This document shows positions 31,490-50,587 of a stretch of DNA of 64,000 bases, one piece after another. The DNA lies in the NCBI GenBank assembly GCA_041651115.1, contig JBAZJY010000002.1:158855-222854 (forward strand). The letters are read 5' to 3'. This DNA comes from Candidatus Omnitrophota bacterium (GTDB lineage Bacteria; Omnitrophota; Gorgyraeia; Gygaellales; Profunditerraquicolaceae). A program made the position numbers and the translations under genes. Every line of letters begins with the position of its first letter. The first letter of the stretch is position 1. The notes under the pieces were generated by a model. The model made no database searches and had not been told where the DNA came from. It saw nothing but the letters and a program-made list of their open reading frames with translations.

Positions 31490-31518
31490 TTGATTTTTTT
31501 GTTCGCGCGGTTTATAAT
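31490..31518 (+). promoter_or_regulatory. sigma70-like promoter (TTGATT-17nt-TATAAT) for the ABC-transporter/radical-SAM glycan operon
   Basis: TTGATT lies at 31490-31495 and TATAAT at 31513-31518, in a 96-nt gap before wzm. Confidence 0.5.
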
Positions 31519-31580
31519 ATAGGCTAATAAATCGTTTCTATTAAAGAAGATACGCATAATCCCGCTCGCCTGCCGCAAAC

Positions 31581-32360
31581 ATGATTAAGCAGAGATTAGA
31601 AAGACTGTATTTATCCCGCCGTATCTTATGGGATATGACTACCCGCCAGTTAAAGGCAAATTACGCCGGTTCATTCCTGGGGATCTGGTGGGCAGTGGTA
31701 ACCCCGCTTTTATTGGCAGTAAGCATTAATTTTATCTTTACGGTGGTCTTTAAGGTGACCATGAAAGATTACTATCTTTTTGTGCTGGCGGGGATTATCC
31801 CGTGGATGTTCTTTATTAATGCCTTAAATGAAGCCGCGAATTCTTTTAGCGTCAATCGCTCGATCCTTAAGCAGGGCGTTTTCCCGAGAGAATTAGTCCC
31901 GCTTTCCTGTGTCTTGGCGTATCTGCTGAATTTTCTTATCGGGTTTATTTTCCTGCTGCCGCTGTTTGCCGCCGCTGACGTGCGGGTAGCCGTATTCATA
32001 CCCGTCTTATTCCTGCTGGCTCTACTTGAATTTATTTTTATCGCCGGCGCAAGCTTGTTGCTCTCCTGCCTGAATGTTTTTTGGCCTGACTTACGCTGCA
32101 TGCTGCCGGTAATATTTATGGTCTGGTTCTGGATAACCCCGGTATTTTATTCATTAAACATGCTGACCCCTTCATTACGCTGGATCTGCCTTTTAAATCC
32201 GGTAACTCATTATATCGTTGCCTATCAGAGGATACTCTTTGAAATAAAGCCGCCCGCGTTCTCAAGTTTTTTCTTATTATCCTGCCTGTCTTTTCTCTCA
32301 ATCGCTTTGGGCGGACTGTTCTTCATAAAGAAAGAATCGCAACTGTTAAAACGGATATGA
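31581..32360 (+). CDS. wzm: ABC-2 type polysaccharide/O-antigen export permease
   Basis: 259 aa, 6 TM helices, and an ABC-2 signature at the N-terminus (YRRILWDMTTRQLKANYAGSFLGIWW). Confidence 0.8.
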   Translation: MIKQRLERLYLSRRILWDMTTRQLKANYAGSFLGIWWAVVTPLLLAVSINFIFTVVFKVTMKDYYLFVLAGIIPWMFFINALNEAANSFSVNRSILKQGVFPRELVPLSCVLAYLLNFLIGFIFLLPLFAAADVRVAVFIPVLFLLALLEFIFIAGASLLLSCLNVFWPDLRCMLPVIFMVWFWITPVFYSLNMLTPSLRWICLLNPVTHYIVAYQRILFEIKPPAFSSFFLLSCLSFLSIALGGLFFIKKESQLLKRI

Positions 32361-33736
32361 GCATAATAAAATTTGATAACGTCAGCGAGAAATACCGCAT
32401 TAAGTTCGTCAGGGAAAATAAAGTCTCATGGGAAGAGATATGGGCGCTTAAAGACGTCTCTTTTGAAATAAAAGAGGGAGAGGTATTCGGGGTAATCGGC
32501 CAGAACGGCGCCGGCAAAACTACGCTGCTTAAGCTGATTGCCGGTATGATCGTGCCTGATTCAGGCAGTATCAATGTCGGAGGCAAGGTTGCTACTCTGA
32601 TGGAATTAGGCGCCGGCTTTAACGCCGAATTTACTGGCAGGGAAAATATCACGCTCAATGCCCGGATCTACGGCTTGGCGGAAGACGTGTTCAGCCGCAC
32701 GGTAGAGCAGATCATTGCTTTTGCAGACCTCGGCAAGTTCATAGACGCGCCGATCAAATATTACTCGCAGGGTATGTATATGCGTCTTGCCTTTGCCTTG
32801 GCAATTTTTATCAATCCCGATATCCTGCTGATCGACGATGTCCTGGCAGTGGGGGACACCGAGGCGCAGCAGAAATGCATTAAGAAGGTAATGGAATTAA
32901 AGCAGTCCGGTAAGACCGTTGTGGTGGTGACCCATGATATGGATATGATCTGCCGGCTCTGTAACCGCGCCTTACTCCTTGAAAAAGGCAAGATTATTTT
33001 GCAGGGCGATCCGGAAAGGGTGGTTTCCCGTTATACGGAAACCTCCGGCGACAAAAAAGGCATAGCGGTAATGGAAAAGTCCGGCATGCGCATAGTTTTT
33101 AATAACGGCAAGATTAGCCTTAGCTATAACGGCGTGGCGATCACCAATAAAATGGCCGGCTATATGGCATTCCTTCCGTTTTCCAATACCTGGAATTTCT
33201 CTTTTAATCTTTACTGGGAGGCAAGGCCGTTGCCGGAGAACAAGATCATCGCGGAAGGCAAATCCAGTGACGCTGCGATTTCCCAGAATTGGCAGTTTTC
33301 CCTGGAAGACGGTTGTTTATGCGCGCAGGCGGATATTAAAGGGGGCATTAAAGAGCCGCATATAGATTGGTTACTTTCCTGCCAATACGACCAATGGCAG
33401 GTTTTAGGCCAGCGCGGCGATTTCCCTCCTTATCTGCATAGGACAAACTGGCATGATATCGGCCTGGCCGAATCACCCGGCGGCATACTTGCCATATCCA
33501 GCAGCGCGCAGGAGAATGGGCTGCCCGGGATCATTTTTAGCGTTGACGACAAAGACGCCAGGATAAAACTGCTTAATACCGGTATGGAACTGGAGTGCCA
33601 CGTTATACAGCTATGCTTAAACAATAATAACCTTATTTCTTTCCGTATGATGATTTTCCCGGAGAGAAGAAAATTTGATGAATATCTGGAGATGAAGAAG
33701 GCGCAGCATGAGCAGGGTTCTGACATCGCGGCTTAA
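32357..33736 (+). CDS. wzt: ABC transporter ATP-binding protein with C-terminal extension domain (Wzt-like)
   Basis: Walker A GQNGAGKTT, an ABC signature and Walker B, followed by a ~230-aa C-terminal non-ATPase domain. Confidence 0.8.
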   Translation: MSIIKFDNVSEKYRIKFVRENKVSWEEIWALKDVSFEIKEGEVFGVIGQNGAGKTTLLKLIAGMIVPDSGSINVGGKVATLMELGAGFNAEFTGRENITLNARIYGLAEDVFSRTVEQIIAFADLGKFIDAPIKYYSQGMYMRLAFALAIFINPDILLIDDVLAVGDTEAQQKCIKKVMELKQSGKTVVVVTHDMDMICRLCNRALLLEKGKIILQGDPERVVSRYTETSGDKKGIAVMEKSGMRIVFNNGKISLSYNGVAITNKMAGYMAFLPFSNTWNFSFNLYWEARPLPENKIIAEGKSSDAAISQNWQFSLEDGCLCAQADIKGGIKEPHIDWLLSCQYDQWQVLGQRGDFPPYLHRTNWHDIGLAESPGGILAISSSAQENGLPGIIFSVDDKDARIKLLNTGMELECHVIQLCLNNNNLISFRMMIFPERRKFDEYLEMKKAQHEQGSDIAA

Positions 33737-36104
33737 AGATAATTACGCGAAACTCAAGCAGCACTATAAGAGCGGCGGCATGGCGTATGCCGTTTGGCGC
33801 GGCCTGCAATATTTCGGTTTTCTATTCAAAAAAGTCGTAGTCCGGCCAAAGCATCCGCGGTATGAAGAGATCTCAAACGGGAACATCAAGATCAGGTTTT
33901 ACGGAAACGGCCTGAGTTTATTCTGGAACAATGCCAGGATCACCGAGGGCGCGGGTTTGAACCTGTCGGTGAATACGCTGGAGCAGTGGACTGATTCCGC
34001 AAAGGCGGACTGGAGTATTCTAAAGAAGACCGGCAATTGTTTTACTTTCAGGGTAGCGTTCAAGGAATTGCCGTTGAGTGTAATCTGGGCCATTGAGATA
34101 GAAGATAACGACAGGATCTCCTGGCACATGGAAATGGAAACAGAAGAGTGGCTGCATATTGATGAGCTGCGTATCGTCTGTTTTGTTTCCGGCCGTTATA
34201 AGATATGGATCGCCGATACGCAGCAGTGCGATTTTCCCCGTTTATGCGGCTGGTGGCAAGACCTTTATTTATCGGATGTGCCGGTTTCCCTGATCGGGGT
34301 AAGATTTCCGGCAAAAGGCGAGTTCCTGCCTTCGCTTGTCCTTGAGACCGCCGAAAAAGAATGGCACTCCCTGATCCAGAACCCGCCTATAAATGAAAAC
34401 ACGCACCTTATCGGCTTAAGGCATACTATCTCCCAGGGCAAACATGATCATTCCCCCGGCCGCTTTCATGTTTTTACCGGCCGCTTGAGTTTATTCGGCA
34501 AAGATAATTTATTGGATAGCAAGTTAGAAAACTTCCGGCAAAGATCATTGCGTAAGACGATCGTTGAGAAATCAAAGCTGGATACTTCCCGGCGGCAATT
34601 AAAGGTCCTTTTGGCAAATCTTCCCTGGTATCAAGGCGGCAGATGGGGCGTCAGGGCAGGTTCCCGCTGGCCGCACATTAAATACGAGACCGAGCGCGAC
34701 TATCAGCCGTTCCCTTTCTTTCTTGCCTACGCGACTTCTCTGTTGCAAAAATTCGGCATTGACGTTTCGATAATTGATGCTGTTGCCGGCCATATGAGCG
34801 AGGCGATATTTTTGGAAAAGGCGCACAGCATGGGTATTGATTATCTGGTCGCGGAAACCTCTATTCCTTCGTTTGATTACGACCTGGCTTTGCTGCAGAA
34901 GGTATCTGATGCAGGTATTAAAATCATCCTTTGCGGCCCGAATTCGGAAATTTATAAATTGGAATTTTTAAAGAAACACCCGTTCATTGATTTTGTGTTA
35001 TACGGAGAATACGAATTCACCCTGCTTGAATTGGTTGAATGCCTGGAGGCAGGCAGGGCCCCTTCCGGTATCAAGGGCCTGATCTATCGCGATAAAGCCG
35101 GGCCGATAAAAAATCCTCCCCGGGAACCGTTTGATATAAATCTCCTGCCGTGGCCGCACAGGGACAGCCTGCCGATGGGTAAGTACCTTGACGCTCCCGG
35201 AGAGCTGCCTTTGCCCAGCGTGCAAATGATCGCTTCCCGCGGCTGCCCGTTTAAGTGCCAGTTTTGCCTCTGGCCGCAGGTAATTTACGCCGGCAGGCAT
35301 TACCGCGCCAGGTCGGTGGAAGATACCATTGATGAGATGGAATACCTTGTCCGGGAAAGAGGCTTCAAGTCCGTTTATTTCGACGATGATACTTTTAATA
35401 TCGGTAAAGAAAGGATGCTTTACTTTTGCCAGGAATTAAAACGCCGCGGCCTGGACAAAACCCCGTGGGCAATAATGGCCAGGCCTGACTTGATGGATAA
35501 GGAGATACTGGAAAGCATGAAGGACGCCGGGCTGTGGGCGGTAAAATACGGCATGGAGTCAACCACGCAATCCCTCGTTGACAACATAGAAAAGAATATG
35601 GATTTAAATATCGCCGAACAGATGATTCGGCTGACCAATAAGTTGGGGATCAGGGTGCACTTGACGTTTACTTTCGGCCTGCCGGGAGAAACGATGGAAA
35701 CGATCCGTAACACGATCAAGCGCGTCCGGGAGCTGGACCCTTTTTCGGTCCAGTTTTCCATCACTACGCCTTTTCCGGGGACAAAATATTATGACGCGCT
35801 GGACAAACAGGGTTTTATCGTATCAAAGAATTTTTCCGATTATGACGGGCATTATAAAAGTACGATCCGGCTGGAAGGGCTTAAGCCCCAGGACCTGGAA
35901 ATGGCAAAAGAAATGGCTTACCGCTCCTGGCGCGACCATTTGAGGAAAAGAAGGGGATTTGCCGGGGACATTAAGAGATTTTTTACTTACTTGAAAGATA
36001 AGGGCCCGGCTTATGCCGCGTCCAAGTCTTTCAGTTACCTCAATTATGTTTTTGTCGGCAGGCCCAAATATCTCAAGATGGATAATTCATCCACGGAGAA
36101 ATAA
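33708..36104 (+). CDS. B12-binding radical SAM protein with N-terminal Wzt-C-terminal-like domain
   Basis: 798 aa. The N-terminal ~300 aa share motifs with the Wzt C-terminal domain (I.F.NG.SL..N..IT, HID.L..C, DFP). They are followed by a B12-binding domain and a CPFKCQFC radical SAM cluster. Confidence 0.75.
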   Translation: MSRVLTSRLKDNYAKLKQHYKSGGMAYAVWRGLQYFGFLFKKVVVRPKHPRYEEISNGNIKIRFYGNGLSLFWNNARITEGAGLNLSVNTLEQWTDSAKADWSILKKTGNCFTFRVAFKELPLSVIWAIEIEDNDRISWHMEMETEEWLHIDELRIVCFVSGRYKIWIADTQQCDFPRLCGWWQDLYLSDVPVSLIGVRFPAKGEFLPSLVLETAEKEWHSLIQNPPINENTHLIGLRHTISQGKHDHSPGRFHVFTGRLSLFGKDNLLDSKLENFRQRSLRKTIVEKSKLDTSRRQLKVLLANLPWYQGGRWGVRAGSRWPHIKYETERDYQPFPFFLAYATSLLQKFGIDVSIIDAVAGHMSEAIFLEKAHSMGIDYLVAETSIPSFDYDLALLQKVSDAGIKIILCGPNSEIYKLEFLKKHPFIDFVLYGEYEFTLLELVECLEAGRAPSGIKGLIYRDKAGPIKNPPREPFDINLLPWPHRDSLPMGKYLDAPGELPLPSVQMIASRGCPFKCQFCLWPQVIYAGRHYRARSVEDTIDEMEYLVRERGFKSVYFDDDTFNIGKERMLYFCQELKRRGLDKTPWAIMARPDLMDKEILESMKDAGLWAVKYGMESTTQSLVDNIEKNMDLNIAEQMIRLTNKLGIRVHLTFTFGLPGETMETIRNTIKRVRELDPFSVQFSITTPFPGTKYYDALDKQGFIVSKNFSDYDGHYKSTIRLEGLKPQDLEMAKEMAYRSWRDHLRKRRGFAGDIKRFFTYLKDKGPAYAASKSFSYLNYVFVGRPKYLKMDNSSTEK

Positions 36105-36105
36105 T

Positions 36106-37512
36106 ATGGATAAAGTAGCTAGCGCAGATATATTGCTTATACAATCCCCGCCCTGGGATACGGAGATGCCCCCGCTTGGCACGGCGTATCTTTCCAGCTA
36201 TCTTAAAAAATTCGGCCGCAATGTTTCGCTTCTGGATTTGAATATCGCATTATACCAGATGGCAGGCGAAGATAGTAAATATCTCTGGGAACAGAAAAAT
36301 TATGACTGTTGGGTAGATACCAATTTATTTAAGGATACCTGGTGCAAACTCCAGGATAATGTCCTTTCCTGTTTTACCAAAGCGCTAAAAGAATCAGGCG
36401 CTAAGCGCATCGGGTTGTCGGTAAATTATGCAAGCATTAATTTCGCGGGGGAATTCCTTAAGCTGGTTACCGGCCTGCACAAGGACCTGAAAATCATCGT
36501 CGGAGGGTGGGGGTGTTCTACCTCGCATATGCGCAGCCTCTTCCCGGCAGGCTCGGTAGATGTATTTGTCGTGGGCGAAGGCGAAGAGACCTTATTTGAA
36601 GTGATGGAAGTTTTAGACGGCGAGAGGCCGGAGGCAGAGGTCGCAGGAGCGGTGTTTAGCAAAAATCCCGCTATCGAGTACAGGCCGCGGCCGCCGATCA
36701 AGGACCTTGACAGCATCCCCTGGCCGACATTTGAGGAATTCCAACTCAACCAATATAAGCACAGGGTGCTCCCGGTTTTTACCAGCCGGGGCTGCATCGG
36801 CCACTGCAGCTTCTGTAATGATTGGTATATTTCCAAGCCTTATCGCCACCGCAGCGCCGGGCACATCTTCGAAGAATTAAAATACCAGAAGGAGCGTTAT
36901 AAAATACAGACCTTTAGTTTTAAAGACCTGTTATGCAACGGCGACATAGATGAACTTAGCCGCCTGGCTGATTTGATAATTGAATCCGGGCTTGGCATCA
37001 ACTGGGATTCCCAGGCCATCCCGCGCAAGGAAATGACCTATGACCTGTTATGTAAACTCAAGGAATGCGGCTGCGGCACGTTGATCTACGGCATTGAGAC
37101 GTTTTCCGATAACGTGCTCAAGCGGATGCGCAAATTATTCACCAGCGAGATCGCAGAAAGGGTGATCAGGGACACTCACAAAGCGGGCATACCGGTGATG
37201 TTCAATATCATCGTCGGTTTTCCCGGAGAAACAGAAGAAGATTTCCAGAAGACTTATGATGCGATAAAAAGGAACCGGCAGTATATCGACCGGATAGGCG
37301 CTGTCAGCGTCTGCCTTGTCAATGCCGAAAGCGACCTGGAGGTGGTTTCCCAGAATTACGGCCTGGTTTTAAGCCCGGACCACCGGATCAGGGCCAAGCA
37401 GTGGCATACCGAAGATAATACCAATACTTATTCGATCAGAAAAAAAAGGGCAGAGCGTATTTATGAACTGATCAGCCAGCTCGGGCTTTCATACGCGACG
37501 TTAACTATATAG
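36106..37512 (+). CDS. B12-binding radical SAM protein
   Basis: Start is ATG 36106, right after the upstream stop. It has a cobalamin-binding N-domain and a CIGHCSFC cluster. Confidence 0.8.
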   Translation: MDKVASADILLIQSPPWDTEMPPLGTAYLSSYLKKFGRNVSLLDLNIALYQMAGEDSKYLWEQKNYDCWVDTNLFKDTWCKLQDNVLSCFTKALKESGAKRIGLSVNYASINFAGEFLKLVTGLHKDLKIIVGGWGCSTSHMRSLFPAGSVDVFVVGEGEETLFEVMEVLDGERPEAEVAGAVFSKNPAIEYRPRPPIKDLDSIPWPTFEEFQLNQYKHRVLPVFTSRGCIGHCSFCNDWYISKPYRHRSAGHIFEELKYQKERYKIQTFSFKDLLCNGDIDELSRLADLIIESGLGINWDSQAIPRKEMTYDLLCKLKECGCGTLIYGIETFSDNVLKRMRKLFTSEIAERVIRDTHKAGIPVMFNIIVGFPGETEEDFQKTYDAIKRNRQYIDRIGAVSVCLVNAESDLEVVSQNYGLVLSPDHRIRAKQWHTEDNTNTYSIRKKRAERIYELISQLGLSYATLTI

Positions 37513-37522
37513 GAGACAAGAT

Positions 37523-38731
37523 ATGTTCTTTAAGAAAGAAGACCTTCTGTTAAAAGGCGTATTGGACGGTGCGCGGGCATTTTTAGGCCCGGAGATCGTG
37601 CAGTTTGACATTACCAATAGATGCAACAACGACTGTTTGTGCTGCTGGAACAATTCGCCGCTTTTGGGCGATGTAGCCGTAAATGATAAGCTCGACAAGA
37701 GAGACGAGTTGCCGGTTGATCTGGTCAAGCGGACCATCAAAGAGCTACGGCAGATGGGCACGCGTACCCTGTTCTTTGCCGGCGGAGGAGAGCCGTTTAT
37801 CCATCCGCATATCATGGAGATCCTGGAATACGCCAAAAAAAACCAGATGCGCGTGTTTATCAATACCAATTTTACGCTGGTCGATAAAGAGCGCGCGGAG
37901 CGGATAGTGACCGCCAAAGTAGACCATATCCACGTCAGCCTCCTGGCAGGCACTGCCCCGACCTATGCCGTGATCCATCCCAATAAGAATGAGGATACCT
38001 TTGCGGGGATCAAGCAGATACTTAAATACATCTCCGTGTTAAAAGCCAATCGCAAACAGCACCTTTACAATCCCCTGCCGCATATCAACCTGTATTACGT
38101 TATCTTTAACCGTAATTATCATGAGATAGATAAGATGGTTGACCTGGCCATGGAAGTAAGAGCAGACAGCGTTGAGTTTACGCCGGTAGATATCGTCCCC
38201 GGCAAAACCGCGTCGCTGCTCATGGATAAAGAACAGATCGCGCAGGTAGTGCAGGCGGTGAATGAACAGGCCAGCAGGCTTGAGCGCTATAATATAGACG
38301 AGCCGGTAAAAGTATATATTGCGCAGAAAGACAGTTTCATTAAGCGGATCAACTCCCCTTTTGCCATGGAAGGCAAATATGAAGCCGAGACGATCACCAA
38401 GCAGCCATGTTATGTAGGCTGGGCCTTTGCGCGCATCAATGCCGACGGAAGCGTGGAGCCCTGCCTTAAGGCCCACCGTTTGTCCGTGGGCAGTCTCTAT
38501 AAGCATTCCTTCCGGGAAATCTGGAATAACCCTGAGCAGCAGTTATTCAGGAAAAAGACCTTTTCCCTTGATTTTAACGATCCGTATTTTCAGCAGATAG
38601 GCAATGACCCGAATTACCCCTGCGGCTGCCTGAAAAGCTGCGATAATATCCAGATCAACGTTGATATAGAAAAGAGATTGGGGGAGACGCTGAGGAAAAA
38701 TGGACGAATTCAGGAAAGTAATTCGCGATAA
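37523..38731 (+). CDS. radical SAM/SPASM domain protein, paralog 1
   Basis: DITNRCNNDCLCCW cluster, GGGEPF SAM motif, and C-terminal Cys motifs (PCYVGW...C.KAH, PCGCLKSCDN). Confidence 0.75.
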   Translation: MFFKKEDLLLKGVLDGARAFLGPEIVQFDITNRCNNDCLCCWNNSPLLGDVAVNDKLDKRDELPVDLVKRTIKELRQMGTRTLFFAGGGEPFIHPHIMEILEYAKKNQMRVFINTNFTLVDKERAERIVTAKVDHIHVSLLAGTAPTYAVIHPNKNEDTFAGIKQILKYISVLKANRKQHLYNPLPHINLYYVIFNRNYHEIDKMVDLAMEVRADSVEFTPVDIVPGKTASLLMDKEQIAQVVQAVNEQASRLERYNIDEPVKVYIAQKDSFIKRINSPFAMEGKYEAETITKQPCYVGWAFARINADGSVEPCLKAHRLSVGSLYKHSFREIWNNPEQQLFRKKTFSLDFNDPYFQQIGNDPNYPCGCLKSCDNIQINVDIEKRLGETLRKNGRIQESNSR

Positions 38732-39947: not shown

Positions 39948-39948
39948 A

Positions 39949-41202: not shown

Positions 41203-41206
41203 TGCT

Positions 41207-41326: not shown

Positions 41327-41332
41327 TCTACT

Positions 41333-42499: not shown

Positions 42500-42514
42500 A
42501 AAGGGGGGTGTGCT

Positions 42515-43138: not shown

Positions 43139-43148
43139 TACTTAAGCT

Positions 43149-43808
43149 GTGCAAGGAGGGAAAAGGAAAGTGAAAAAAGCCATATTTTCCTGTTTTTTCA
43201 TTCCGGTATTCTGCATTTGTTGCGGCCTTTTGGCCGCAGAAAAGAGTTTGGCTGCCGATATTAACGAGTCCAGCGCCCGGATAGACATCAATAGTGAAAA
43301 TTCCGCGTTTAGCTTTACTAACGTAAGCAGCAACGGCCAATGTAACGTCGCCGACTGGGTGCCTGTAAAAGAGCAGCCAAAAAACTGGCTGACGCAAATG
43401 GCGCTGCGGCTTGATGAGGAATGGCAGGAGCTTTGGATCGAGTTTACGCCTTCAGCCTCGGGATACGTAGTTATGCAGCTAAGAGGTTCGTATTATCCCG
43501 ATATCAAAAAAAACCGTCATGAAGTATGGGTTGATGATGTGACCGTGCAGGGTAAAGGCGCTGCGCTGGTAAACGGCAGTTTTGAATATCTGCGTAATCC
43601 CAACGGTAACCTGATTGGCTGGGCATGGGCTGACCTGTCCGGGGCCAAATACCGCCAGGTGCCCGAATTTGCCAAGCACGGGAAGAACTGCATCCTGGTC
43701 TGGCATGATAATCCGGTAATTGCCAAGATCGCCGTCAAGGCAGGCGAGAAATATAAGATCAGTGCCTGGTTCAGGCCGAATTATAAAAAGCCGCAGAAGT
43801 CTTCATAG
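43149..43808 (+). CDS. secreted carbohydrate-binding-module-like protein, paralog B
   Basis: Signal peptide, then the same WIEFTPSASGYV/LRGSYY/VWVDD/NGSFE blocks as paralog A. The true start may be GTG 43170. Confidence 0.45.
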   Translation: MQGGKRKVKKAIFSCFFIPVFCICCGLLAAEKSLAADINESSARIDINSENSAFSFTNVSSNGQCNVADWVPVKEQPKNWLTQMALRLDEEWQELWIEFTPSASGYVVMQLRGSYYPDIKKNRHEVWVDDVTVQGKGAALVNGSFEYLRNPNGNLIGWAWADLSGAKYRQVPEFAKHGKNCILVWHDNPVIAKIAVKAGEKYKISAWFRPNYKKPQKSS

Positions 43809-43825
43809 CTAGCCCTAAAATAATC

Positions 43826-45403
43826 ATGCGCGCATTATTACTGGCCATTATTATACTCTTCCACGGCATTAATAATTATTTCTGGCTGAAGCAGGACAAT
43901 GAAAGCATGGGCACGGATGTGGCCAGCCACGTCAGCTGCGCAGTTTCTTTCCATCAACAGCTAAAGAACATATTCTTCTCCGGAGAGCAGCCGGCAGAAA
44001 AATGTAAGTGGCTTGTTTTTTTGTTCCTTAGCGGCCCGTTCTATTGGCCCCATCTGGTACATTTCCTTGCTGCGCTAGCCGCTTTTATCTCACAGGACGT
44101 CCTTTTCTGGATCAGGTTTTCCAATCTATTTTATTTTGCGGCCCTCGTCATCGGCACCTATCTTTTGGGGAAAAAGGTGCACAGCACGCAGGCAGGCTTG
44201 CTTGCCGCAGTTTTTATTTCTTTGTATCCGGGCATATTCGGCCTATCCCGTAAATTCGGGTTGGATTTTCCGCTTACCAGTATTGTCTGTCTGGCGATTT
44301 ATTTTCTCCTAAGCAGCGAAGGATTCCAGAACCGACGCTATAGCGCATTGTTCGGGATTGCCTCGGGGTTAGGCATGCTGATAAAGGGGCAGTTCCTGCT
44401 TTTTTTGGCCGGCCCGTCTTTATTTGTGGCGGTTACGGGGTTTATGCGCAGCCGGGATAAAAGAAATTATTTTTTTAATCTTTCTTTTTCTGCCGCGCTT
44501 GCCGCCGGTATCGCTTTTGTCTGGTGGCATAAGTTTTTTTCTCCCGCCATTGAAGCGCCGCGGTATATAGATTTTTTATGGTATAAGCCCGGTGCCCTAC
44601 GGAGCTTCTATTTTTATTTGAGGGGTGCGTTTTTGTACATCTCACCGTTATTTTTTGCGGCGTTTCTCCTGGGCCTGGCCTTATATTTGAAGAATTTTAA
44701 GAAAGTGAGGCTATTTTTCCTGTCTTGGGCAGCCTTGCCGTGCATTTTTTTTCTCCTATTCTATAAACTCGACAACGAAAGGTATATTTTCCCATTTTTT
44801 CCGGCGCTGGCATTGATTACCGCGATTGGAATACTGGAGCTTGCCTCCAGGAAGTTAATGCGGCGGCTAATCATATTTTTTATCCTTACCGGCGCATTGC
44901 AATTTTTTGGCTTAAGCTACGCCGGCCTTGCCCCGCCGTCATGCTGGATGGTCCATAGCCCGCAGAAGAATACTCACCGTTTGATCATAAATGAATTTAA
45001 CCGGATCATGCAGGGGGTTAAGCCGGGCAGGAGAGAAATCGGGATTATTGAAGAGGAATATTTTTCCGGCGACCCTTGCCTGCGGCTGGCATACTTTCTT
45101 AAGCTGGCCGATGAGAAAAATAATGTCTCTTTAAGTGCTGATGGTGTGCGCATATATCATTTAAGCCTATCAAGAGAACTCCTTTCAAAGGCATTTCTTA
45201 GCCGGCAGGACAATTATGATTTTTTGATTGTTTTCTCGCAGGACGGGGAAGGGCCTGATTTTTCCGGGCTTGAAAAATTCTCCACTGAGCAGGAAAAAGA
45301 AATGGCTGCCGCGGCGATAAAGAAATTTAAAAAATTTCAGATCATAAAACGAAGGATCTTCTGGCCGGGAGAAATATATGTATTCCTCCTTAAAAAAACA
45401 TAA
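43826..45403 (+). CDS. GT-C fold glycosyltransferase (ArnT/PMT_2-like), paralog 1
   Basis: 525 aa, ~11 TM in the N-terminal half plus a soluble C-terminal domain. Layout resembles GT39/83. Confidence 0.55.
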   Translation: MRALLLAIIILFHGINNYFWLKQDNESMGTDVASHVSCAVSFHQQLKNIFFSGEQPAEKCKWLVFLFLSGPFYWPHLVHFLAALAAFISQDVLFWIRFSNLFYFAALVIGTYLLGKKVHSTQAGLLAAVFISLYPGIFGLSRKFGLDFPLTSIVCLAIYFLLSSEGFQNRRYSALFGIASGLGMLIKGQFLLFLAGPSLFVAVTGFMRSRDKRNYFFNLSFSAALAAGIAFVWWHKFFSPAIEAPRYIDFLWYKPGALRSFYFYLRGAFLYISPLFFAAFLLGLALYLKNFKKVRLFFLSWAALPCIFFLLFYKLDNERYIFPFFPALALITAIGILELASRKLMRRLIIFFILTGALQFFGLSYAGLAPPSCWMVHSPQKNTHRLIINEFNRIMQGVKPGRREIGIIEEEYFSGDPCLRLAYFLKLADEKNNVSLSADGVRIYHLSLSRELLSKAFLSRQDNYDFLIVFSQDGEGPDFSGLEKFSTEQEKEMAAAAIKKFKKFQIIKRRIFWPGEIYVFLLKKT

Positions 45404-46958
45404 ATACGCCTTTTGCGTAGCCGTAATCATACTTTTTCATGGCATTAACAATTATCTCTGGCTGAAGCAGGATAATGAAAGTATGGGCACTGATGTGGCG
45501 ATACACATCAACTCGGCAGTATCATTGCGCCAGGGTTTAGGCGAAATAGCTTTTTCCAGGGTAAGCCTAGCGCAGAAAGGCAAACAGTTCGCAGGGCTTT
45601 TTTTCAGCGGCCAATCATACTGGCCGAAGTTCGTGCCTTTTTTTGCGGCGCTGGCATCTTACCTGCCCCCTGATCCGCTTTTCTGGATCAGGTTTTCCAA
45701 TATGTTTTATTTCGCCATCCTCATCATCAGCGTGTACCTTCTGGGAAAAAAGGCGCACAGCCCGCAGGCAGGCGTGCTTGCCGCAGTTTTTATTTCTTTA
45801 TATCCGGGTATCTTCGGCCTGTCCCGGAAATTCGGCCTGGACTTTCCGTTGATCGGCATAACCGCCCTGGCCATGTATTTGCTTTTCAGCAGCGATAATT
45901 TCCAAAACCGGCGCTACAGCATACTATTCGGAATAACTTCAGGCCTGGGCATGCTGATAAAAGGGCAATTGTTGCTTTTTCTAATCGGGCCATTTTTATA
46001 TACGGCCGGAAACGGCTTTATGAACAGGGAGAGCAGAAAGAAATCCCTGGTTAATATTTCTGTAATGTTGGGGATTGCGCTGGCCATTGCCCTATCCTGG
46101 TGGTACAGGATGCATTCGGGACTATGGGGGGTTTATCTAAGATACAATATCCCGGTTGCGCTGCAGTACTTTTTGGTTACCGCATATCATCAAATGTCCC
46201 CGCTGTTTTTTACCGCCTTCCTCATGGGCATTGCTTTTTATCTAGTGCGCCGGAAACTCCCGCCGTTATTCTTATTATTGTGGCTTGTCACGCCGTGCCT
46301 TCTCTTACTTGCATTTTATACGTCCAACCATGAGCGCTATATTTTTCCGGCGTTTGCTGCGCTGGCGCTGATCTCTGTAACGGGCATACTTGAAATGCCT
46401 TCCCGCAAAGCCAGGCTGGCGCTGTTTTTATTTTTTATTTTTTTCGGGCTGGTAAATTTTTTCAATTCAAGCTATACGGCCGAGTTCTCTAGCTCCTCAT
46501 GGATCACGCATCGCCCGCAACAGCACAATCACCGTAAGGTTATGGACATCTTTAGCCGTGAGGTTAAGAGGCATGGCGCAGTAAACAGCAATATCGGCAT
46601 GATCGAAGAAGATTATTTCCGGGGCGACCCCTGCATCCGCCTGGGATATTTTTTAAAGCTTATTAATCCTCAAAGCAAAGTTTTTTTAAGCGCCGACGGG
46701 TACATCATACTTTACCCCTACGAGGCGGGATTTCGTGCGTCCGAAGGGTTCCTCGCTAATTTAAACAATTTTGATTTTTTGCTTGTTTTCTCGCAGAACC
46801 CGCTAAAACCAAGTTTTTGGAATGCCCAAAAACCTTCGGGCAATGCGGAAAGGGACGTCCTGCTTGAGGCGCAAAAGGCATTCCGGGATTTCAAAATAAT
46901 AAAGCGCGGCGTACTCAGGCCGGAAGAAATATACGTTTTTCTTTTAAAAAGGCAATAA
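45378..46958 (+). CDS. GT-C fold glycosyltransferase (ArnT/PMT_2-like), paralog 2
   Basis: 526 aa. N- and C-termini are near-identical to paralog 1 (ILFHGINNY.WLKQDNESMGTDVA, EIYVFLLK). Confidence 0.55.
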   Translation: MYSSLKKHKYAFCVAVIILFHGINNYLWLKQDNESMGTDVAIHINSAVSLRQGLGEIAFSRVSLAQKGKQFAGLFFSGQSYWPKFVPFFAALASYLPPDPLFWIRFSNMFYFAILIISVYLLGKKAHSPQAGVLAAVFISLYPGIFGLSRKFGLDFPLIGITALAMYLLFSSDNFQNRRYSILFGITSGLGMLIKGQLLLFLIGPFLYTAGNGFMNRESRKKSLVNISVMLGIALAIALSWWYRMHSGLWGVYLRYNIPVALQYFLVTAYHQMSPLFFTAFLMGIAFYLVRRKLPPLFLLLWLVTPCLLLLAFYTSNHERYIFPAFAALALISVTGILEMPSRKARLALFLFFIFFGLVNFFNSSYTAEFSSSSWITHRPQQHNHRKVMDIFSREVKRHGAVNSNIGMIEEDYFRGDPCIRLGYFLKLINPQSKVFLSADGYIILYPYEAGFRASEGFLANLNNFDFLLVFSQNPLKPSFWNAQKPSGNAERDVLLEAQKAFRDFKIIKRGVLRPEEIYVFLLKRQ

Positions 46959-46974
46959 AATACAGGCATCGGAT

Positions 46975-47703
46975 ATGGGGCCCATACTTTATTCCGTAGT
47001 CATCCCGGTTTATAACGAAGAAGCCGCGATCACTTCTACGATTAAACGCATAGAGGATTACTTTAACAAAAGAAGGTCAACATACGAAGTGATCCTGGTA
47101 AACGACGGAAGCACGGATGCAACCGTCACAAAGATCAGGAATGAAATATCCGACCGGCCGAACGTGCGGCTGCTGGCAAACCGCCGCAATGAAGGTAAGG
47201 GCGCGGCAGTCCGAAAAGGGATGTTATCTTCCCGCGGGGATTATCTTATCTTTACGGATGCGGATATGTCAACGCCCATAGAAGAGCTGGACAGCATCCT
47301 GGAACCGGGGTTTGCCTATAATGATAAGATCGTCATCGGCATAAGAGACGAGACGGTAAAAAATAAAAAAGTAGACAGGCCGGCAATCCGCAAAATAGTC
47401 AGCAGGACGTATAACTTCATGGCCAACTTTTTATTCGGCCTGAAAATGAATGATATCGGCTGCGGCTTTAAATGTTTTCCTTCGGCAATTGCCAAGTCAA
47501 TATTTGCCGAGCAAAAGATAAAAGGCTGGGTATTTGACGCCGAGCTTTTACTTAAGGCAAGGAAGATGGGCGTGCCTGTCAAAGAAGTGCCGGTATCATG
47601 GGCAAACCACCTCATTACCCGCGTAAACATCATTCCGGACAGCGCGTATTGCGCTTTTGACCTCTTGAGGCTGTTCTACTATAATCTGGCAGGCAAATTA
47701 TAA
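46975..47703 (+). CDS. GT2 polyprenyl-phosphate sugar synthase (Dpm1/ArnC/GtrB-like)
   Basis: SVVIPVYNEE, DGSTD and FTDADMSTP (DxD) motifs. 242 aa. Confidence 0.75.
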   Translation: MGPILYSVVIPVYNEEAAITSTIKRIEDYFNKRRSTYEVILVNDGSTDATVTKIRNEISDRPNVRLLANRRNEGKGAAVRKGMLSSRGDYLIFTDADMSTPIEELDSILEPGFAYNDKIVIGIRDETVKNKKVDRPAIRKIVSRTYNFMANFLFGLKMNDIGCGFKCFPSAIAKSIFAEQKIKGWVFDAELLLKARKMGVPVKEVPVSWANHLITRVNIIPDSAYCAFDLLRLFYYNLAGKL

Positions 47704-47735
47704 AACGCACGCTTATCTTGCGTTCCGGGGGTATT

Positions 47736-48617
47736 ATGGATTTTAGCATAGTTGTGCCGGTATATAATAAGGAAAAAACCCTTGAAGCCTGCATCAATTC
47801 TTTATTGGCACAGGATTATACCGAAGGCAGGTACGAGATAATATTCGTCAATAACAACTCAACCGATAATTCCTGCGCGATCATCGGCAGGCGCCCTTCG
47901 CTTAAGTTGATCCATGAAAAAAAGCAGGGCAGCTATGCCGGCCGCAATGCCGGGATACGGCAGGCAGAAGGTTCGGTAGTGGTTTTTACCGACGCGGATA
48001 TAGAGGTCAGGCGCGACTGGCTGAAAAATATCCGTTCTGCATTCGCGAAAAATAATTATGATATACTTATCGGCTGGTGCCTGCCGGCTGTTCCCGTAAA
48101 GCTCCTGGAAGTCCATAGTTTATTTATCCGTGAAAAAATAAAGGCCGCGCTCGCGCAGAAAGATTACCGTATGCTTATAGCCGGAGCAGGCAACCTGGCG
48201 ATAAAAAGGAGTGTTTTTGCCGCAGAGGGATTATTTTCGGCCGATTCCAATTCCGATGATACCAATTTTGTGATCCGCTGCTGCGAAAAAGGATACAAAG
48301 CGGGGTTTAGTGACGATATAGAAGCGAGAAGAAACGATATTAGCGGTATCGGAATTTACCTGCTAAAGAACTTTATTTCCGGCTGTTCTTACGTTCCGGA
48401 ATCAACGGGTAAGCCGTCTTTAGCAGCGCGGTTGAAAAACGCCGGACTGCTCATAAAATTCATGTTCAGGCATTTCCCGGTTGGATTAGGGATGCCCGTG
48501 ATTACGCTTTTCTATTTCATGGGGAATTTCTTGAACAGGATCGGCGTGATCAAGCCTTCCATCAGGCAGAGGCTGGTGCTTAATTATACGAACTTCATGA
48601 CTAAAAAGGGGCTTTAG
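47736..48617 (+). CDS. glycosyltransferase family 2
   Basis: IVVPVYNKE and FTDAD motifs. Start is chosen at ATG 47736. Confidence 0.7.
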   Translation: MDFSIVVPVYNKEKTLEACINSLLAQDYTEGRYEIIFVNNNSTDNSCAIIGRRPSLKLIHEKKQGSYAGRNAGIRQAEGSVVVFTDADIEVRRDWLKNIRSAFAKNNYDILIGWCLPAVPVKLLEVHSLFIREKIKAALAQKDYRMLIAGAGNLAIKRSVFAAEGLFSADSNSDDTNFVIRCCEKGYKAGFSDDIEARRNDISGIGIYLLKNFISGCSYVPESTGKPSLAARLKNAGLLIKFMFRHFPVGLGMPVITLFYFMGNFLNRIGVIKPSIRQRLVLNYTNFMTKKGL

Positions 48618-48622
48618 GGATC

Positions 48623-49720
48623 ATGGCCGCGGTTAAGGTAGTTTTTGTTACGCGTGAAGGCTATAATTTGCCCGGCGCAAGGATCAGATGTTATAATTTT
48701 AGCCGCGAACTCAACCGCAACGGCATAGCCAGTGAAGTGCTGTCATTCTCCGACACCTTGGGCGCAAAGGACGGGGAACGCGAGAGCCAACTGACCTTAA
48801 GGGAAAAAATAGCATTTAACCAACAGGCCTTGGCCAGGCTTTTAAAAAACAAAGGCGCGGTTATCTGCATCCAGCGCTTTAATTACCATTCCTTTGCCCC
48901 GTATCTGGCGCATCTGGTAAACCGGAATAAAATTATCCTTGATCTTGATGATTGGGAAATGCGCGAAGATCCGGTATATCATTTCGGTTTTTATCCGTCT
49001 TCCAAGGCGCATTATTTCACGCGCCAGATCGCCAGAAGAAGCATCTTCTGCATAGCGGCCAGTCGTTTCCTGGAAAAGTTCCTCCTGGAATTTAATAAAA
49101 AAGTTTATTATATCCCTTCGGGAGTAGATATGGAATTATTCCGGCCCGGACCTGAAATTCCGGAAAGGGAGAAAATAGTTTTTTCCTGGATCGGGACTTT
49201 TCACCGCAGCGAATACGTTGAAAATATCCGTTTTGCCGTGGATTGTTTTATGCGCCTGAGGAAGCGCTATGACCATATATTTTTGGAAATATTGGGCGCG
49301 GGCATTCACGGTAACCAGGTGCAAAAGATCATTGCGGAAGCAGGCGACAGTAATATTTTATTAAAGGGCTGGATCGCTCCGCAGGATGTGCCGGGGTACC
49401 TTACGAAGATAGGCGCGGGCCTTTTGCCGGTGGCCCGGGATTCAAAATTTAACCGGGCAAAGAGCCCGACCAAGCTCTTTGAATATATGGCAATGGCCAA
49501 ACCGTCGGTTTGCTCAAGTATCGGCGAAGCAGCAGAGGTCATCCGTGACGGCGAAAACGGGTTGCTTGCCGCGGATAAGGAAGAGTTTACGGAAAAGATG
49601 CGGCTATTGATAGAGGACCGGCAGCTTTGTTTACGTATAGGCAGCAGCGCCCGCAAGACAGTAGAGAGCAGCTATTCACTGGAAGCGCTTGGCATACAGC
49701 TGGCCGAATTATTAAAATAA
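48623..49720 (+). CDS. glycosyltransferase family 4-like
   Basis: 365 aa GT-B fold with the C-terminal EY.A..KP motif region. Confidence 0.6.
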   Translation: MAAVKVVFVTREGYNLPGARIRCYNFSRELNRNGIASEVLSFSDTLGAKDGERESQLTLREKIAFNQQALARLLKNKGAVICIQRFNYHSFAPYLAHLVNRNKIILDLDDWEMREDPVYHFGFYPSSKAHYFTRQIARRSIFCIAASRFLEKFLLEFNKKVYYIPSGVDMELFRPGPEIPEREKIVFSWIGTFHRSEYVENIRFAVDCFMRLRKRYDHIFLEILGAGIHGNQVQKIIAEAGDSNILLKGWIAPQDVPGYLTKIGAGLLPVARDSKFNRAKSPTKLFEYMAMAKPSVCSSIGEAAEVIRDGENGLLAADKEEFTEKMRLLIEDRQLCLRIGSSARKTVESSYSLEALGIQLAELLK

Positions 49721-50562
49721 TGCCTGAATTATCGGTAGTTATCTTAACTTCTAACAGCATTGGAACGATTGGGCCGTGCCTGGATTCTGTTTTTAGCCAA
49801 GACTATAAAGACCGGGAAGTGATCGTCGTTGATAACGGCTCATCCGACAGAACTCAAGATTTTATAAAACGGCAGTATCCGGCGGTAATATTATTAGAAA
49901 ATAAAGAAAATTTAGGCGCGGCCAAGGCGAGAAATCAAGGCATTGATATTGCCAGGGGCAATTGGGTCTTTACGCAGGATTGCGATGTCGTGCTGGAGAA
50001 TGGCTTTTTCCCACAGGCAATCGCTGTGATCAATTCCGTGCCCTTTGATACCGCGATGATCCAGCCAAAGATCTTATGCGCAGATAAGAAAACTATTTAT
50101 TCCTGCGGCATTTATCTTTCCCGGATATTGAAAAGATTCTACGATATCGGAAGGGGAAAGATTGACCGCGGACATTTTTCCGTAAGAAAATATATTTTTG
50201 GCGCCTGTTCTGCCGCGGCTTTTTACCGCCGGAAAATGCTGGATGAGGTAAGGGAAAGTACCGGCTATTTTGACGAGCGGTTTTTCTTTTTGGTTGAGGA
50301 CGTTGATTTATCGTGGCGGTTGCAGAGAAATGGTTATAAAGCATTGTATGCCCCTGATGCCGTATGTTATCATCAGGGCAACAGCTCTTTAACCAACGCA
50401 AAGATGCGCCAGTATCTCTGCTGGAGGAACAGAAAGTACCTTCTGGCAAAGCTCAAATTAAATAAAGCGCTATCGGCGCTGATATTTTTAATATACGATC
50501 TCCCGCGTTATATTTTCCTCATTTTAACCAACCCCTTTGTGCGTACGAACAATCAGGCTTGA
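49720..50562 (+). CDS. glycosyltransferase family 2
   Basis: ATG overlaps the previous stop. Motifs LSVVILTSN, VVDNGSSD and QDCD (DxD). Confidence 0.7.
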   Translation: MPELSVVILTSNSIGTIGPCLDSVFSQDYKDREVIVVDNGSSDRTQDFIKRQYPAVILLENKENLGAAKARNQGIDIARGNWVFTQDCDVVLENGFFPQAIAVINSVPFDTAMIQPKILCADKKTIYSCGIYLSRILKRFYDIGRGKIDRGHFSVRKYIFGACSAAAFYRRKMLDEVRESTGYFDERFFFLVEDVDLSWRLQRNGYKALYAPDAVCYHQGNSSLTNAKMRQYLCWRNRKYLLAKLKLNKALSALIFLIYDLPRYIFLILTNPFVRTNNQA

Positions 50563-50587
50563 CAATTACCGCTACACATGTTATATT
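50559..50587 (+). promoter_or_regulatory. sigma70 consensus-like promoter (TTGACA-17nt-TATATT) of the DUF134/arsenic operon
   Basis: TTGACA at 50559-50564 and TATATT at 50582-50587. A GGGAGG RBS precedes the TTG start at 50619. Confidence 0.55.

Follow-up and report, generated by a model that had tools for sequence, protein, structure and literature searches.

A locus in a Candidatus Omnitrophota MAG probably encodes a system, coupled to an exporter, that edits a lipid-linked glycan by radical chemistry. Within a window of 64 kb (the whole stretch of DNA that was analysed), five radical SAM (rSAM) genes stand in a row beside a Wzm/Wzt exporter, and the operon is, on balance, best understood as serving ABC-transporter-dependent assembly and export of a lipid-linked surface glycan, with the five rSAMs as built-in tailoring parts physically directed to both glycan and exporter. 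The sharing of an unclassified domain of sugar-binding type between an rSAM and the exporter points to an undescribed editing of surface glycan before export. No description of exporter-coupled radical SAM glycan editing was found in the literature searched, and the original prediction of an undescribed modification system is supported to that extent. If this reading is true, a surface glycan is edited by radical chemistry before it is exported.

The genes form a single tight co-directional run (31581-50562) of 16 ORFs, all on the + strand, in which neighbouring ORFs overlap or lie no more than about 17 nt apart; the sole exception is a gap of 131 nt (41202-41333), which contains a conserved 39-aa ORF. 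Gene assignments in the window were based on Pfam and NCBIfam profile matches scored against family cutoffs. All the genes named in the original prediction were found where it had placed them, but downstream of the SPASM genes they come in another order than it listed. Within the 96-nt gap upstream of Wzm there is a promoter-like site (TTGATT-17-TATAAT, 31490-31518, + strand) that is a consensus match only; sites of this kind are no more numerous in the region than expected from shuffled sequence. The exporter's ABC-2 permease, Wzm (31581-32360; Pfam ABC2_membrane 54.4 bits), has a galactan Wzm/RfbD permease as its sole NCBIfam match, below cutoff, and Wzt, the exporter ATPase (32357-33736; ABC_tran 79 bits), finds its top NCBIfam matches in TagH and galactan Wzt, under their cutoffs. 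Two class-B-type rSAMs, B12a (33708-36104; Radical_SAM 70 bits) and B12b (36106-37512, the gene call starting at 36106; Radical_SAM 79.5 bits), are succeeded by three rSAM/SPASM paralogs at 37523-38731 (Radical_SAM 77 bits, SPASM 40.6 bits), 38700-39947 (77.7 and 39.7 bits) and 39949-41202 (52.7 and 36.2 bits), and then by the 39-aa membrane microprotein MKKIRALTVILFLFAIAVVMDTALFLLKKLRGSLYFPGG (41207-41326), a TM helix followed by a C-terminal LLKKxRG..FPG[GSAN].

The remainder of the run begins with a GT4 (GT4a, 41333-42499; Glycos_transf_1 85.7 bits), the conserved partner 3' of the rSAM block, and continues with two membrane-anchored paralogs that are 43% identical, one of 207 aa with a single N-terminal TM helix (42515-43138), for which Pfam and NCBIfam searches gave no match, and one of 219 aa (43149-43808). 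The naming of CBM-like proteins in the original prediction gained no support. There follow two PMT_2/ArnT-like GT-C enzymes, the multi-pass GT-C a (43826-45403; PMT_2 41.8 bits) and GT-C b (45378-46958; PMT_2 51.5 bits, PMT 30.2 bits), and a GT2 (46975-47703; Glycos_transf_2 104 bits) that looks like a polyprenyl-phosphate sugar synthase because its best NCBIfam matches, all below cutoffs, are of that type (ArnC, PgfS, AglJ, Dol-P-hexose transferase and PpgS). This GT2 is likely to be the donor-maker for the GT-C pair, and a pairing of GT-C with a short GT2 is also present in a related locus (L087). A second GT2 (47718-48617; Glycos_transf_2 105.8 bits), a GT4 (GT4b, 48623-49720; Glyco_trans_1_4 68.7 bits), homologs of which lie 3' of GT4a in many related loci, and a third GT2 (49627-50562; Glycos_transf_2 94.9 bits) complete the run. 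Neither an initiating transferase nor an O-antigen ligase or nucleotide-sugar gene was found within the 64-kb window. After the last GT2 a strong promoter-like site (50559-50587) stands ahead of a DUF134/ArsP block. The arsenic genes predicted to form an inserted island do include ACR3 (405 bits, cutoff 283), but flanking repeats and mobility genes that would mark an insertion are absent. The Wzx-type flippase thought to match the locus is a Wzx-like gene (54561-55847; Polysacc_synt 172 bits) that lies on the strand opposite to the run, and the pairing is not supported.

The CX3CX2C motif is intact in all five rSAMs, none of which has TM or signal segments, and they are therefore cytoplasmic. 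Both class-B-type enzymes had been predicted to bind B12; the B12-binding profile bears this out for B12b (38.2 bits against a Pfam cutoff of 32.1) but not for B12a (16.9 bits), in which CX3CX2C lies at aa 513. The CX3CX2C motif lies at aa 34, 41 and 45 in SPASM paralogs 1, 2 and 3 respectively, its median start among 98 SPASM ORFs being residue 39, and this is so near the N-terminus that there is no room for an N-terminal RRE/PqqD-like domain. The 39-aa peptide, the product of the only conserved small ORF, is encoded on its own immediately 5' of the GT4 gene in about 17 loci and occurs in DPANN archaeal loci too; at 11 loci or more it is instead fused to B12b as its C-terminal tail, and it is therefore to be regarded as an anchor rather than a leader-core peptide.

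The domain that links the exporter to the rSAMs, referred to here as the GM domain, is of about 190 aa and is common to the C-terminus of Wzt, where a single copy (aa 239-423, nt 33071-33625, + strand; profile HMM E 8.6e-43) follows the NBD (aa 1-238), and to the N-terminus of B12a, where it (aa 53-241, nt 33864-34430, + strand; E 7.8e-62) precedes a Rossmann-like domain and the rSAM core. The two regions also match each other by BLASTP (E 3e-6). The copies are only about 20% identical, with no homogenisation within the genome, so they need not have the same ligand. B12b and the three SPASM enzymes of the window carry no GM domain themselves. Searches of Pfam and of PDB sequences gave no match to the domain. 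An AF2 model (pLDDT 94.6, pTM 0.88) predicts a galactose-mutarotase-like beta-supersandwich, a likeness at the level of fold only (4-13% identity), and its structural neighbours are nearly all carbohydrate-active enzymes; the fold is also that of YidC P1 and of an NDH subunit, neither of which is known to bind sugar. Aromatic and polar side chains prevail among the residues conserved in 226 copies (W43, W51, W76, W88, Y113, W116, F125, Q74, N174 and R182).

A profile HMM recovered 252 copies of the GM domain in 134 proteins from 85 loci, but it is rare, with 584 bearers among 1.84 billion protein cluster representatives, and its settings are Wzt (1-8 copies), rSAM enzymes, GT-C transferases or a protein of its own. 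Among the best 147 of these 584 representatives, 76 have a Wzt NBD with 2-8 GM copies, 41 have the GM domain alone, about 20 have it fused to B12a, B12b or SPASM rSAMs, and seven carry it at the C-terminus of PMT_2 GT-C enzymes, where, from the known topology of GT-C enzymes, it would be periplasmic (crude TM counts are ambiguous). One protein of 1856 aa, confirmed with Pfam, unites ABC_tran, five GM copies, Radical_SAM and SPASM; it occurs in two samples, and genes for WecA, an FAD oxidase and Wzm lie ahead of its own.

Relatives of B12a are encoded at no fewer than 490 loci in GTDB species representatives, and the cassette recurs in 83 analysed loci, most of them from Omnitrophota but some from DPANN archaea. 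All of its carriers are uncultured. Wzt lies within 6 kb in 33 of the 53 loci with enough upstream flank, and where the downstream flank suffices SPASM rSAMs are downstream or fused in 39 of 41 loci and a GT4 gene is downstream in 24 of 41. When loci were instead chosen through a GM-bearing Wzt, rSAM genes were present in 4/4, interleaved with GT4 genes in two (L088 and L090) and fused to Wzt in another (L086). The neighbourhood comparison proposed with the original prediction thus shows a conserved cassette. Related loci also encode a PF00953 WecA-type initiator (11 loci), Wzy_C O-antigen-ligase-like proteins (five), carbamoyltransferases (15), SGNH enzymes (12 and seven) and sugar epimerase/dehydratases (six), whilst no lipid-synthesis genes were found in those examined.

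An important consideration is whether the rSAMs belong to the glycan pathway at all. Five rSAM genes in succession beside Wzm/Wzt cannot be put down to chance, since dozens of species-level genomes share the arrangement. That the rSAM genes are unrelated passengers of an ordinary O-antigen locus, having landed there randomly or been inserted recently, is accordingly extremely improbable: nothing specific favours it, GC content and skew do not flag the block as foreign (nor need they), and it is contradicted by the conservation across two domains of life, by the shared GM domain and gene fusions that link Wzt to the rSAMs, and by the recovery of rSAMs from loci chosen through Wzt. It is also very unlikely that the block is a RiPP maturation unit whose product leaves by the ABC transporter, the glycosyltransferases being mere neighbours or glycosylating the peptide. 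RiPP maturation is a typical role of SPASM rSAMs and of class-B rSAM methyltransferases, B12b has a RiPP C-methyltransferase subfamily as its top NCBIfam match (123 bits), the SPASM paralogs weakly match PqqE, AlbA and WgkB, and a conserved small ORF lies inside the block. However, all of these matches are far below cutoffs (SPASM paralog 1 is below every NCBIfam cutoff), the small ORF is the TM tail of B12b, and neither a RiPP precursor or leader-recognition domain, nor a PqqD match in a Pfam search of the locus proteins, nor a leader peptidase in the locus was found. The exporter is a Wzm/Wzt pair rather than of PCAT/ABC-C39 type, and the rSAMs bear a carbohydrate-enzyme-type domain in common with Wzt and GT-C. 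The layout of the run, the shared domain, the fusions, the synteny and the glycan genes of related loci thus uphold the original assignment of the five rSAMs to a glycan pathway. The finding named beforehand as able to overturn that assignment, a separate rSAM unit acting on a peptide, did not turn up in these searches.

The nature of the substrate is a more delicate matter. The rSAMs could act on soluble precursors, giving unusual nucleotide sugars or monosaccharides for later incorporation by glycosyltransferases, with the GM domain binding the monomer or being a mutarotase-like catalytic module. The action of DesII, AprD4 and GenK on small molecules is a parallel, but this is unlikely, since tandem arrays of 2-8 copies on Wzt and on GT-C enzymes are more in keeping with avidity for a polymer than with binding of a monomer, the chemistry is located at the exporter by the direct fusion of Wzt, GM and rSAM and by the membrane anchor on B12b, and the GM domain is smaller than the matched epimerases (about 290-340 aa) and its HIDExR motif is not kept in every one of the 226 copies. 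A quite unlikely alternative is that the GM domain serves as a docking or scaffold module between proteins, gathering rSAMs on the exporter, the substrate being a lipid (polyprenyl carrier, glycolipid anchor or membrane lipid) flipped by the ABC-2 transporter. The NCBIfam relatives of B12a include the lipid-modifying HpnJ, ladderane B12 rSAM and HpnR, SPASM paralog 2 weakly matches the tetraether synthase Tes, B12b is membrane-anchored, different proteins that bear GM copies could assemble through them and the YidC P1 domain has the same fold. Yet the cassette is common to Bacteria and DPANN Archaea, which differ in membrane lipids and carriers, GM copies also occur on GT-C C-termini away from Wzt, the loci are rich in glycosyltransferases and glycan-tailoring genes rather than lipid-synthesis genes, and the structural neighbours of the domain are overwhelmingly carbohydrate-active.

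Under the favoured reading of exporter-coupled glycan editing, the GT4 and GT2 enzymes would assemble a chain, borne on polyprenyl phosphate, on the cytoplasmic side of the membrane, after initiation by a WecA-type enzyme presumably encoded elsewhere in this genome, as opposed to within the locus in relatives. The GM domain would bind the nascent glycan, the substrate of the rSAMs would be the polymer, and B12a, with its GM domain, may abstract hydrogen from a sugar carbon, leading to deoxygenation, ring rearrangement or C-methylation. B12b, held at the membrane by the 39-aa TM peptide, would most likely C-methylate, and the three SPASM paralogs may carry out additional radical steps, for instance oxidation, epimerisation or cross-linking. 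The GM domain of Wzt would then recognise the finished chain and load it into Wzm/Wzt, and after export the two GT-C enzymes could add sugars from a polyprenyl-P-sugar donor made by the ArnC-like GT2.

Such a scheme has counterparts in known systems. In classical Wzt proteins a C-terminal CBD recognises the chemically modified end of the chain (PMC9445017), and the Wzt described here has a GM domain exactly where those proteins have their cap-binding jelly-roll CBD. B12a is HpnJ/AprD4-like, and those two enzymes, its nearest characterised relatives, both have sugar rings as substrates, which sets a precedent for the chemistry proposed. HpnJ carries out ring contraction on a lipid-linked glucosamine (PMC9204698). 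AprD4 is a diol dehydratase of sugars.

The run between 31581 and 50562, from a Candidatus Omnitrophota MAG, comprises sixteen genes, all on the + strand, and the ORF listing together with Pfam and NCBIfam scans confirmed the gene inventory of the original prediction, which had placed five radical SAM (rSAM) enzymes in a glycan locus. The order is Wzm (ABC2_membrane), Wzt (ABC_tran), a first rSAM enzyme of 798 aa, referred to here as B12a (33708-36104), a second of 468 aa with a B12-binding domain, B12b (36106-37512), three rSAM/SPASM paralogs (37523-41202), a GT4 enzyme, two membrane-anchored proteins without assigned function, two PMT_2-type GT-C transferases, a short ArnC/PgfS/AglJ-like GT2 and finally GT2, GT4 and GT2 enzymes. 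Adjacent genes overlap or are separated by a few bases, the sole real gap being one of 131 nt that holds a 39-aa ORF, and the CX3CX2C motif is intact in all five rSAM enzymes, none of which has TM segments. Promoter and terminator scans of the window were uninformative: there were 28 promoter-like sites where shuffled sequences gave an expectation of 30.3, and the 37 terminator-like sites, somewhat more than the 24.9 expected, included none at a gene-gene boundary. No riboswitch, for example for cobalamin or SAM, was found in the window. The two anchored proteins (42515-43808, + strand) are paralogs with 43% identity, in which the motif ..VWVDDxxV.. precedes ..NGxFE.. ..ISAWF in an order that may correspond to a circularly permuted CBM_4_9-type jelly roll; structure prediction was weak.

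Homology links the N-terminal 190 or so residues of B12a with the extension at the C-terminus of Wzt (BLASTP E 3e-6), and a profile of this common domain (GM) built from related loci matched B12a with an E value of 7.8e-62 and Wzt with one of 8.6e-43. The profile had no match in Pfam or among PDB sequences and the fold was revealed only by structure prediction; an AlphaFold2 model from a 28-sequence alignment was all-beta and very confident (pLDDT 94.6, pTM 0.88), and this predicted structure superposes on members of the galactose-mutarotase-like supersandwich fold, which YidC P1 and an NDH subunit also have. The exporter itself is formed by Wzm (ABC2_membrane 54.4 bits, cutoff 26.9) and Wzt (ABC_tran 79.1 bits), whose genes overlap by 4 nt, and the top three NCBIfam matches of Wzt (TagH, 198 and 166 bits; galactan Wzt, 156 bits) all lie under the equivalog cutoffs of 320-538. 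The classical carbohydrate-binding domain (CBD) of Wzt is a jelly-roll dimer that recognises the modified chain end (PMC9445017). The Pfam test for that domain (Wzt_C) was negative on this Wzt, and because the classical CBD is absent from the top structural matches of the GM model, Wzt is predicted to carry a different domain, of a carbohydrate-enzyme-type fold, in the CBD position, with an rSAM enzyme carrying a member of the same domain family. From the fold neighbours of the model and from conserved Trp, Tyr, Gln, Asn and Arg positions we infer that the GM domain binds carbohydrate. The idea that GM specificity co-evolves, with the Wzt and rSAM copies of one genome being more alike than copies from different genomes, was rejected, identity being about 19% either way; the Wzt and B12a copies are about 20% identical, with no within-genome co-variation, and four of the five rSAM enzymes in the window lack a GM domain of their own.

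The GM domain is rare, a full HMMER scan having found it in 584 of 1.84 billion cluster representatives, and its architectures were counted among the best 147 of these. The nucleotide-binding part (NBD) of Wzt followed by 2-8 GM copies accounted for 76 of the 147 and GM alone for 41, whilst about 20 were fusions to B12a-type, B12b-type or SPASM rSAM enzymes and in 7 a PMT_2 GT-C transferase carried the domain at its C-terminal end. One protein of 1856 aa, the gene for which was seen in two samples, comprises ABC_tran, five GM copies, Radical_SAM and SPASM, and its gene is preceded by those for a WecA-type transferase, an FAD oxidase-like protein and Wzm. Because they are linked by GM fusions, there is strong evidence at the level of protein architecture that the exporter ATPase, the rSAM enzymes and the GT-C enzymes would work on one object. 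All solved GT-C enzymes have their C-terminal soluble domain in the periplasm, so the GM domain probably acts at both faces of the membrane, crude hydropathy-based TM counts being ambiguous for the topology of the GT-C transferases fused to GM. The GM domain might instead serve as a docking site on the cytoplasmic NBD, but we infer that a ligand which crosses the membrane, that is the glycan, would fit it better.

The best NCBIfam match of B12a was HpnJ (E 3.5e-71, with almost the full model covered), but since the score of 240.5 bits lies under the curated TIGR03471 cutoff of 577.6 it is a relative of HpnJ and not a member. Its best solved relative is AprD4 (PDB 6fd2, E 2e-25). B12a belongs to neither family; both relatives attack sugar-ring C-H bonds, in one case on a lipid-linked sugar. 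For HpnJ, contraction of the pyranose ring in hopanoid-linked glucosamine has been proposed (PMC9204698), and AprD4 dehydrates sugar diols without cobalamin (PMC12931638). Both of the first two rSAM enzymes had been called B12-binding; B12b passes the Pfam threshold (Radical_SAM 79.5 bits; B12-binding 38.2 bits, cutoff 32.1) and B12a scores under it (Radical_SAM 70 bits; B12-binding 16.9 bits, same cutoff of 32.1). Cobalamin use by B12a is uncertain, given this sub-threshold match and the finding that AprD4 binds no cobalamin (PMC12931638). B12b combines a class B core with a bona fide N-terminal B12-binding Rossmann domain, and it resembles C-methyltransferases. All three SPASM paralogs pass both the rSAM and the SPASM cutoffs of Pfam, as had been expected. 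Among the related loci fetched from other genomes (numbered with the prefix L), L005, L017, L029, L067 (e.g. 10001-15784), L079 and others encode giant multi-rSAM polypeptides, in which a single 1900-aa protein can hold as many as five rSAM domains, examples being a B12a core followed by four SPASM units and triple B12b fusions of 1270-1540 aa.

An alternative is that the rSAM genes form a separate unit acting on a RiPP peptide, and the conserved 39-aa ORF in the 131-nt gap (41207-41326, + strand) was considered as a precursor for it. The ORF encodes a TM helix and then a C-terminal LLKKxRG..FPG[GSAN] with an invariant FPG motif; in at least 11 genomes the same peptide forms the end of B12b at its C-terminus, in about 17 it is encoded by a separate gene right upstream of GT4, and it also occurs in archaeal loci. 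The ORF was rejected as a precursor because other genomes carry it as a TM tail at the C-terminus of B12b, and it is best read as a putative membrane anchor for B12b. No RiPP precursor with leader and core was found next to the rSAM genes, this TM helix being the sole conserved small ORF. The CX3CX2C motif starts at residues 34, 41 and 45 in the SPASM paralogs of the window (median 39 in 98 standalone SPASM homologs), so near the N-terminus that there is no room for a leader-recognition (RRE) domain; a Pfam scan gave no match to a PqqD-like domain on or beside the maturases, and neither a leader peptidase nor a PCAT-type exporter was found in the locus.

With one genome scanned for each GTDB species, at least 490 loci encoding a relative of B12a were found, the best 80 of which are mostly from Omnitrophota, and the B12a catalytic core also occurs at 49-58% identity in Woesearchaeota and other DPANN archaea, Aminicenantes, Patescibacteria, Margulisiibacteriota and Caldisericota. 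All hosts of the cassette are uncultured. Comparison of the neighbourhoods, by mapping the proteins of the window onto all fetched loci, revealed a recurring cassette in the order Wzm, Wzt with n GM copies, B12a with or without GM, SPASM rSAM enzymes, B12b, GT4 and GT4/GT2, sometimes followed by GT-C. The SPASM rSAM enzymes number 0-9 per fetched locus (median 3) and are frequently fused into proteins of 1000-1900 aa. Wzt lay within 6 kb in 33 of the 53 loci having enough upstream sequence, and in the 41 loci with enough downstream sequence SPASM rSAM genes were present in 39, GT4 in 24 and B12b in 24. In the reverse test, all four loci chosen via a GM-bearing Wzt contained rSAM genes, and there are loci in which rSAM genes are interleaved with GT4 (L088, L090) or in which an rSAM is fused to Wzt itself (L086). 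The genes that recur around the cassette are of types usual in loci for lipid-linked glycans and include a PF00953 WecA-type initiator (11 loci), a Wzy_C O-antigen-ligase-like protein (5 loci), a NodU-type carbamoyltransferase (15 loci), SGNH enzymes (12 + 7 loci), a sugar epimerase/dehydratase (6 loci) and an FAD amine-oxidase-like gene immediately 5' of Wzm (18 loci); only an SGNH gene (28895-29572) was found in the window. Neither an initiating polyprenyl-phosphate transferase nor a ligase is present in the 64-kb window, and both occur in relatives. The reading of the five rSAM enzymes as part of a glycan pathway is thus supported and considerably strengthened by the GM domain common to Wzt and rSAM, the fusions, the conserved cassette and the lack of RiPP features.

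Several further observations were made in the related loci. The conserved FAD protein upstream of Wzm is of about 430 aa (Amino_oxidase/NAD_binding_8), is found in L003, L005, L086, L089 and 14 more loci, often beside a WecA-type transferase, and is absent from the window. DPANN loci from Woesearchaeota, Nanoarchaeota and AR15 (L040, L042, L056-L058, L068, L078, L080 and L085) contain the B12a core at 49-56% identity, SPASM rSAM enzymes, Wzm/Wzt, GT4 and the FPG-tail peptide, and the presence of the cassette in these archaea implies that ultra-small anaerobes have exchanged it across domains of life. In another Omnitrophota contig (L004, 9152-15186) an ORF of >2224 aa with no Pfam match lies directly 3' of the GT4 pair of the cassette.

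Downstream of the cassette a separate unit (50559-54574, + strand) encodes a DUF134 regulator, an ArsP-type permease, a thioredoxin-like protein, a DsbD-like protein and ACR3, and is preceded by a strong promoter-like site, TTGACA-17-TATATT with TG. The description of this arsenic block as an inserted island gained no support, as flanking repeats and mobility genes were looked for and none was found; a Wzx-like gene does lie beyond the block, as predicted, but on the opposite strand. A perfect 15-nt inverted repeat with a 70-nt spacer (55891-55990) occupies the gap separating the Wzx-like gene and a GH1 gene, and at 57260-58560 tRNA-Leu(caa) and tRNA-Ala(ggc) are back to back, followed by a sixth, unrelated rSAM-like ORF (335 aa, no Pfam match at E up to 0.01 and a weak STM4011-family NCBIfam match). 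An RlmN-like rSAM gene is located at 27880-28908. The genes at 22191-27883 (+ strand), 4-9 kb upstream of the five-rSAM cassette, encode a PNP_UDP_1 nucleoside phosphorylase, an MtnA-type isomerase, whose TIGR00524 score of 208 bits exceeds the cutoff of 186, and a class II aldolase, then an aldehyde dehydrogenase and an acyl-CoA ligase, a set which we take to resemble the "DHAP shunt" that salvages 5'-deoxyadenosine/MTA, an rSAM by-product. In L088 a PNP_UDP_1 gene likewise sits between rSAM genes.

The tailoring of surface glycans normally relies on polar chemistry such as O-methylation, acylation and phosphorylation, and rSAM enzymes can functionalise unactivated sugar carbons without oxygen. 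It is proposed that the lipid-linked glycan would undergo radical tailoring at the cytoplasmic face, the individual reactions being guesses, that the tailored glycan would then be recognised by the GM domain of Wzt and exported, and that after export it may be decorated in the periplasm by the GT-C/ArnC-like module. More broadly, and with confidence a little short of even, Omnitrophota and DPANN archaea may have in common an exporter-docked, multi-enzyme radical "glycan editing line", in which a new family of carbohydrate-binding modules, also replacing the classical Wzt CBD, targets the rSAM enzymes and in which C-H or C-C changes, giving C-methyl, deoxy, carbocyclic, epimerised or cross-linked sugars, are put directly into the lipid-linked polysaccharide before export. 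If so, this would to our knowledge be the first example of a polysaccharide chain modified by radical SAM enzymes, and glycan export that depends on an ABC transporter would gain a new recognition logic. Action of the enzymes on the polymer at the exporter would mean a new class of polysaccharide modification in anaerobic, ultra-small and probably host-associated microbes, together with a new carbohydrate-binding module family and a new solution to substrate recognition by Wzt, and could provide tools for glycan C-methylation, deoxygenation or epimerisation. As the cassette is compact and recurrent, and natural fusions show which proteins cooperate, the question is directly testable by heterologous reconstitution. 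Full-text literature searches yielded no account of the rSAM-Wzt cassette or the GM domain, and nothing relevant on rSAM with Wzt, O-antigen or Omnitrophota, the two Xanthomonas matches concerning unrelated genes.

The locus is best filed under the ABC-transporter-dependent glycan pathway, to which it adds a new domain family borne by the exporter and, as a proposed built-in part, radical SAM tailoring. The GM domain has no detectable sequence relationship (4-13% identity) to the galactose-mutarotase-like domains of GH2, GH38, GH15, GH65/94, PL families, OpgG/OpgD and Cgs, and its context, in fusions to an ABC ATPase, rSAM enzymes and GT-C, is new relative to those carbohydrate-active enzymes. 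HpnJ (hopanoid cyclitol-ether formation), AprD4 (aminoglycoside 3'-deoxygenation) and the MoeK5/GenK-type C-methylases all act on sugar rings, HpnJ and MoeK5 on lipid-linked sugars; B12a shares with them the Rossmann-like and rSAM core, but differs in its extra N-terminal GM domain and in adjoining an exporter instead of lying in a hopanoid or antibiotic cluster. The SPASM paralogs resemble anSME, BtrN, PqqE, AlbA and NirJ/AhbD in having an rSAM core and a C-terminal Cys-rich SPASM domain (36-41 bits, 5-7 C-terminal Cys), whereas they fall under every NCBIfam cutoff (best about 100-117 bits against 380), lack an RRE, occur in tandem (0-9 per locus) and, in relatives, frequently form fusions with GM or multi-rSAM polypeptides of 1000-1900 aa. 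In common with CBD-dependent Wzm/Wzt O-antigen export in Aquifex aeolicus, E. coli O9a and Raoultella terrigena (PMC9445017), there is an ABC-2 permease together with an ATPase that carries an additional C-terminal domain right after the NBD, the locus also has GT4/GT2 enzymes, and the logic, in which a cytoplasmic chemical modification is recognised before export, would by analogy be alike. The two multi-pass PMT_2/ArnT-like GT-C transferases (41.8 and 51.5 bits) adjoin the ArnC/Dpm1-like short GT2, which best matches ArnC, PgfS, AglJ and PpgS in NCBIfam, under their equivalog cutoffs; this pairing is that of ArnC/ArnT- and GtrB/GtrC-type periplasmic decoration, but there are two GT-C paralogs here with no recognisable small flippase, and in relatives the GT-C bears 2-4 C-terminal GM domains.
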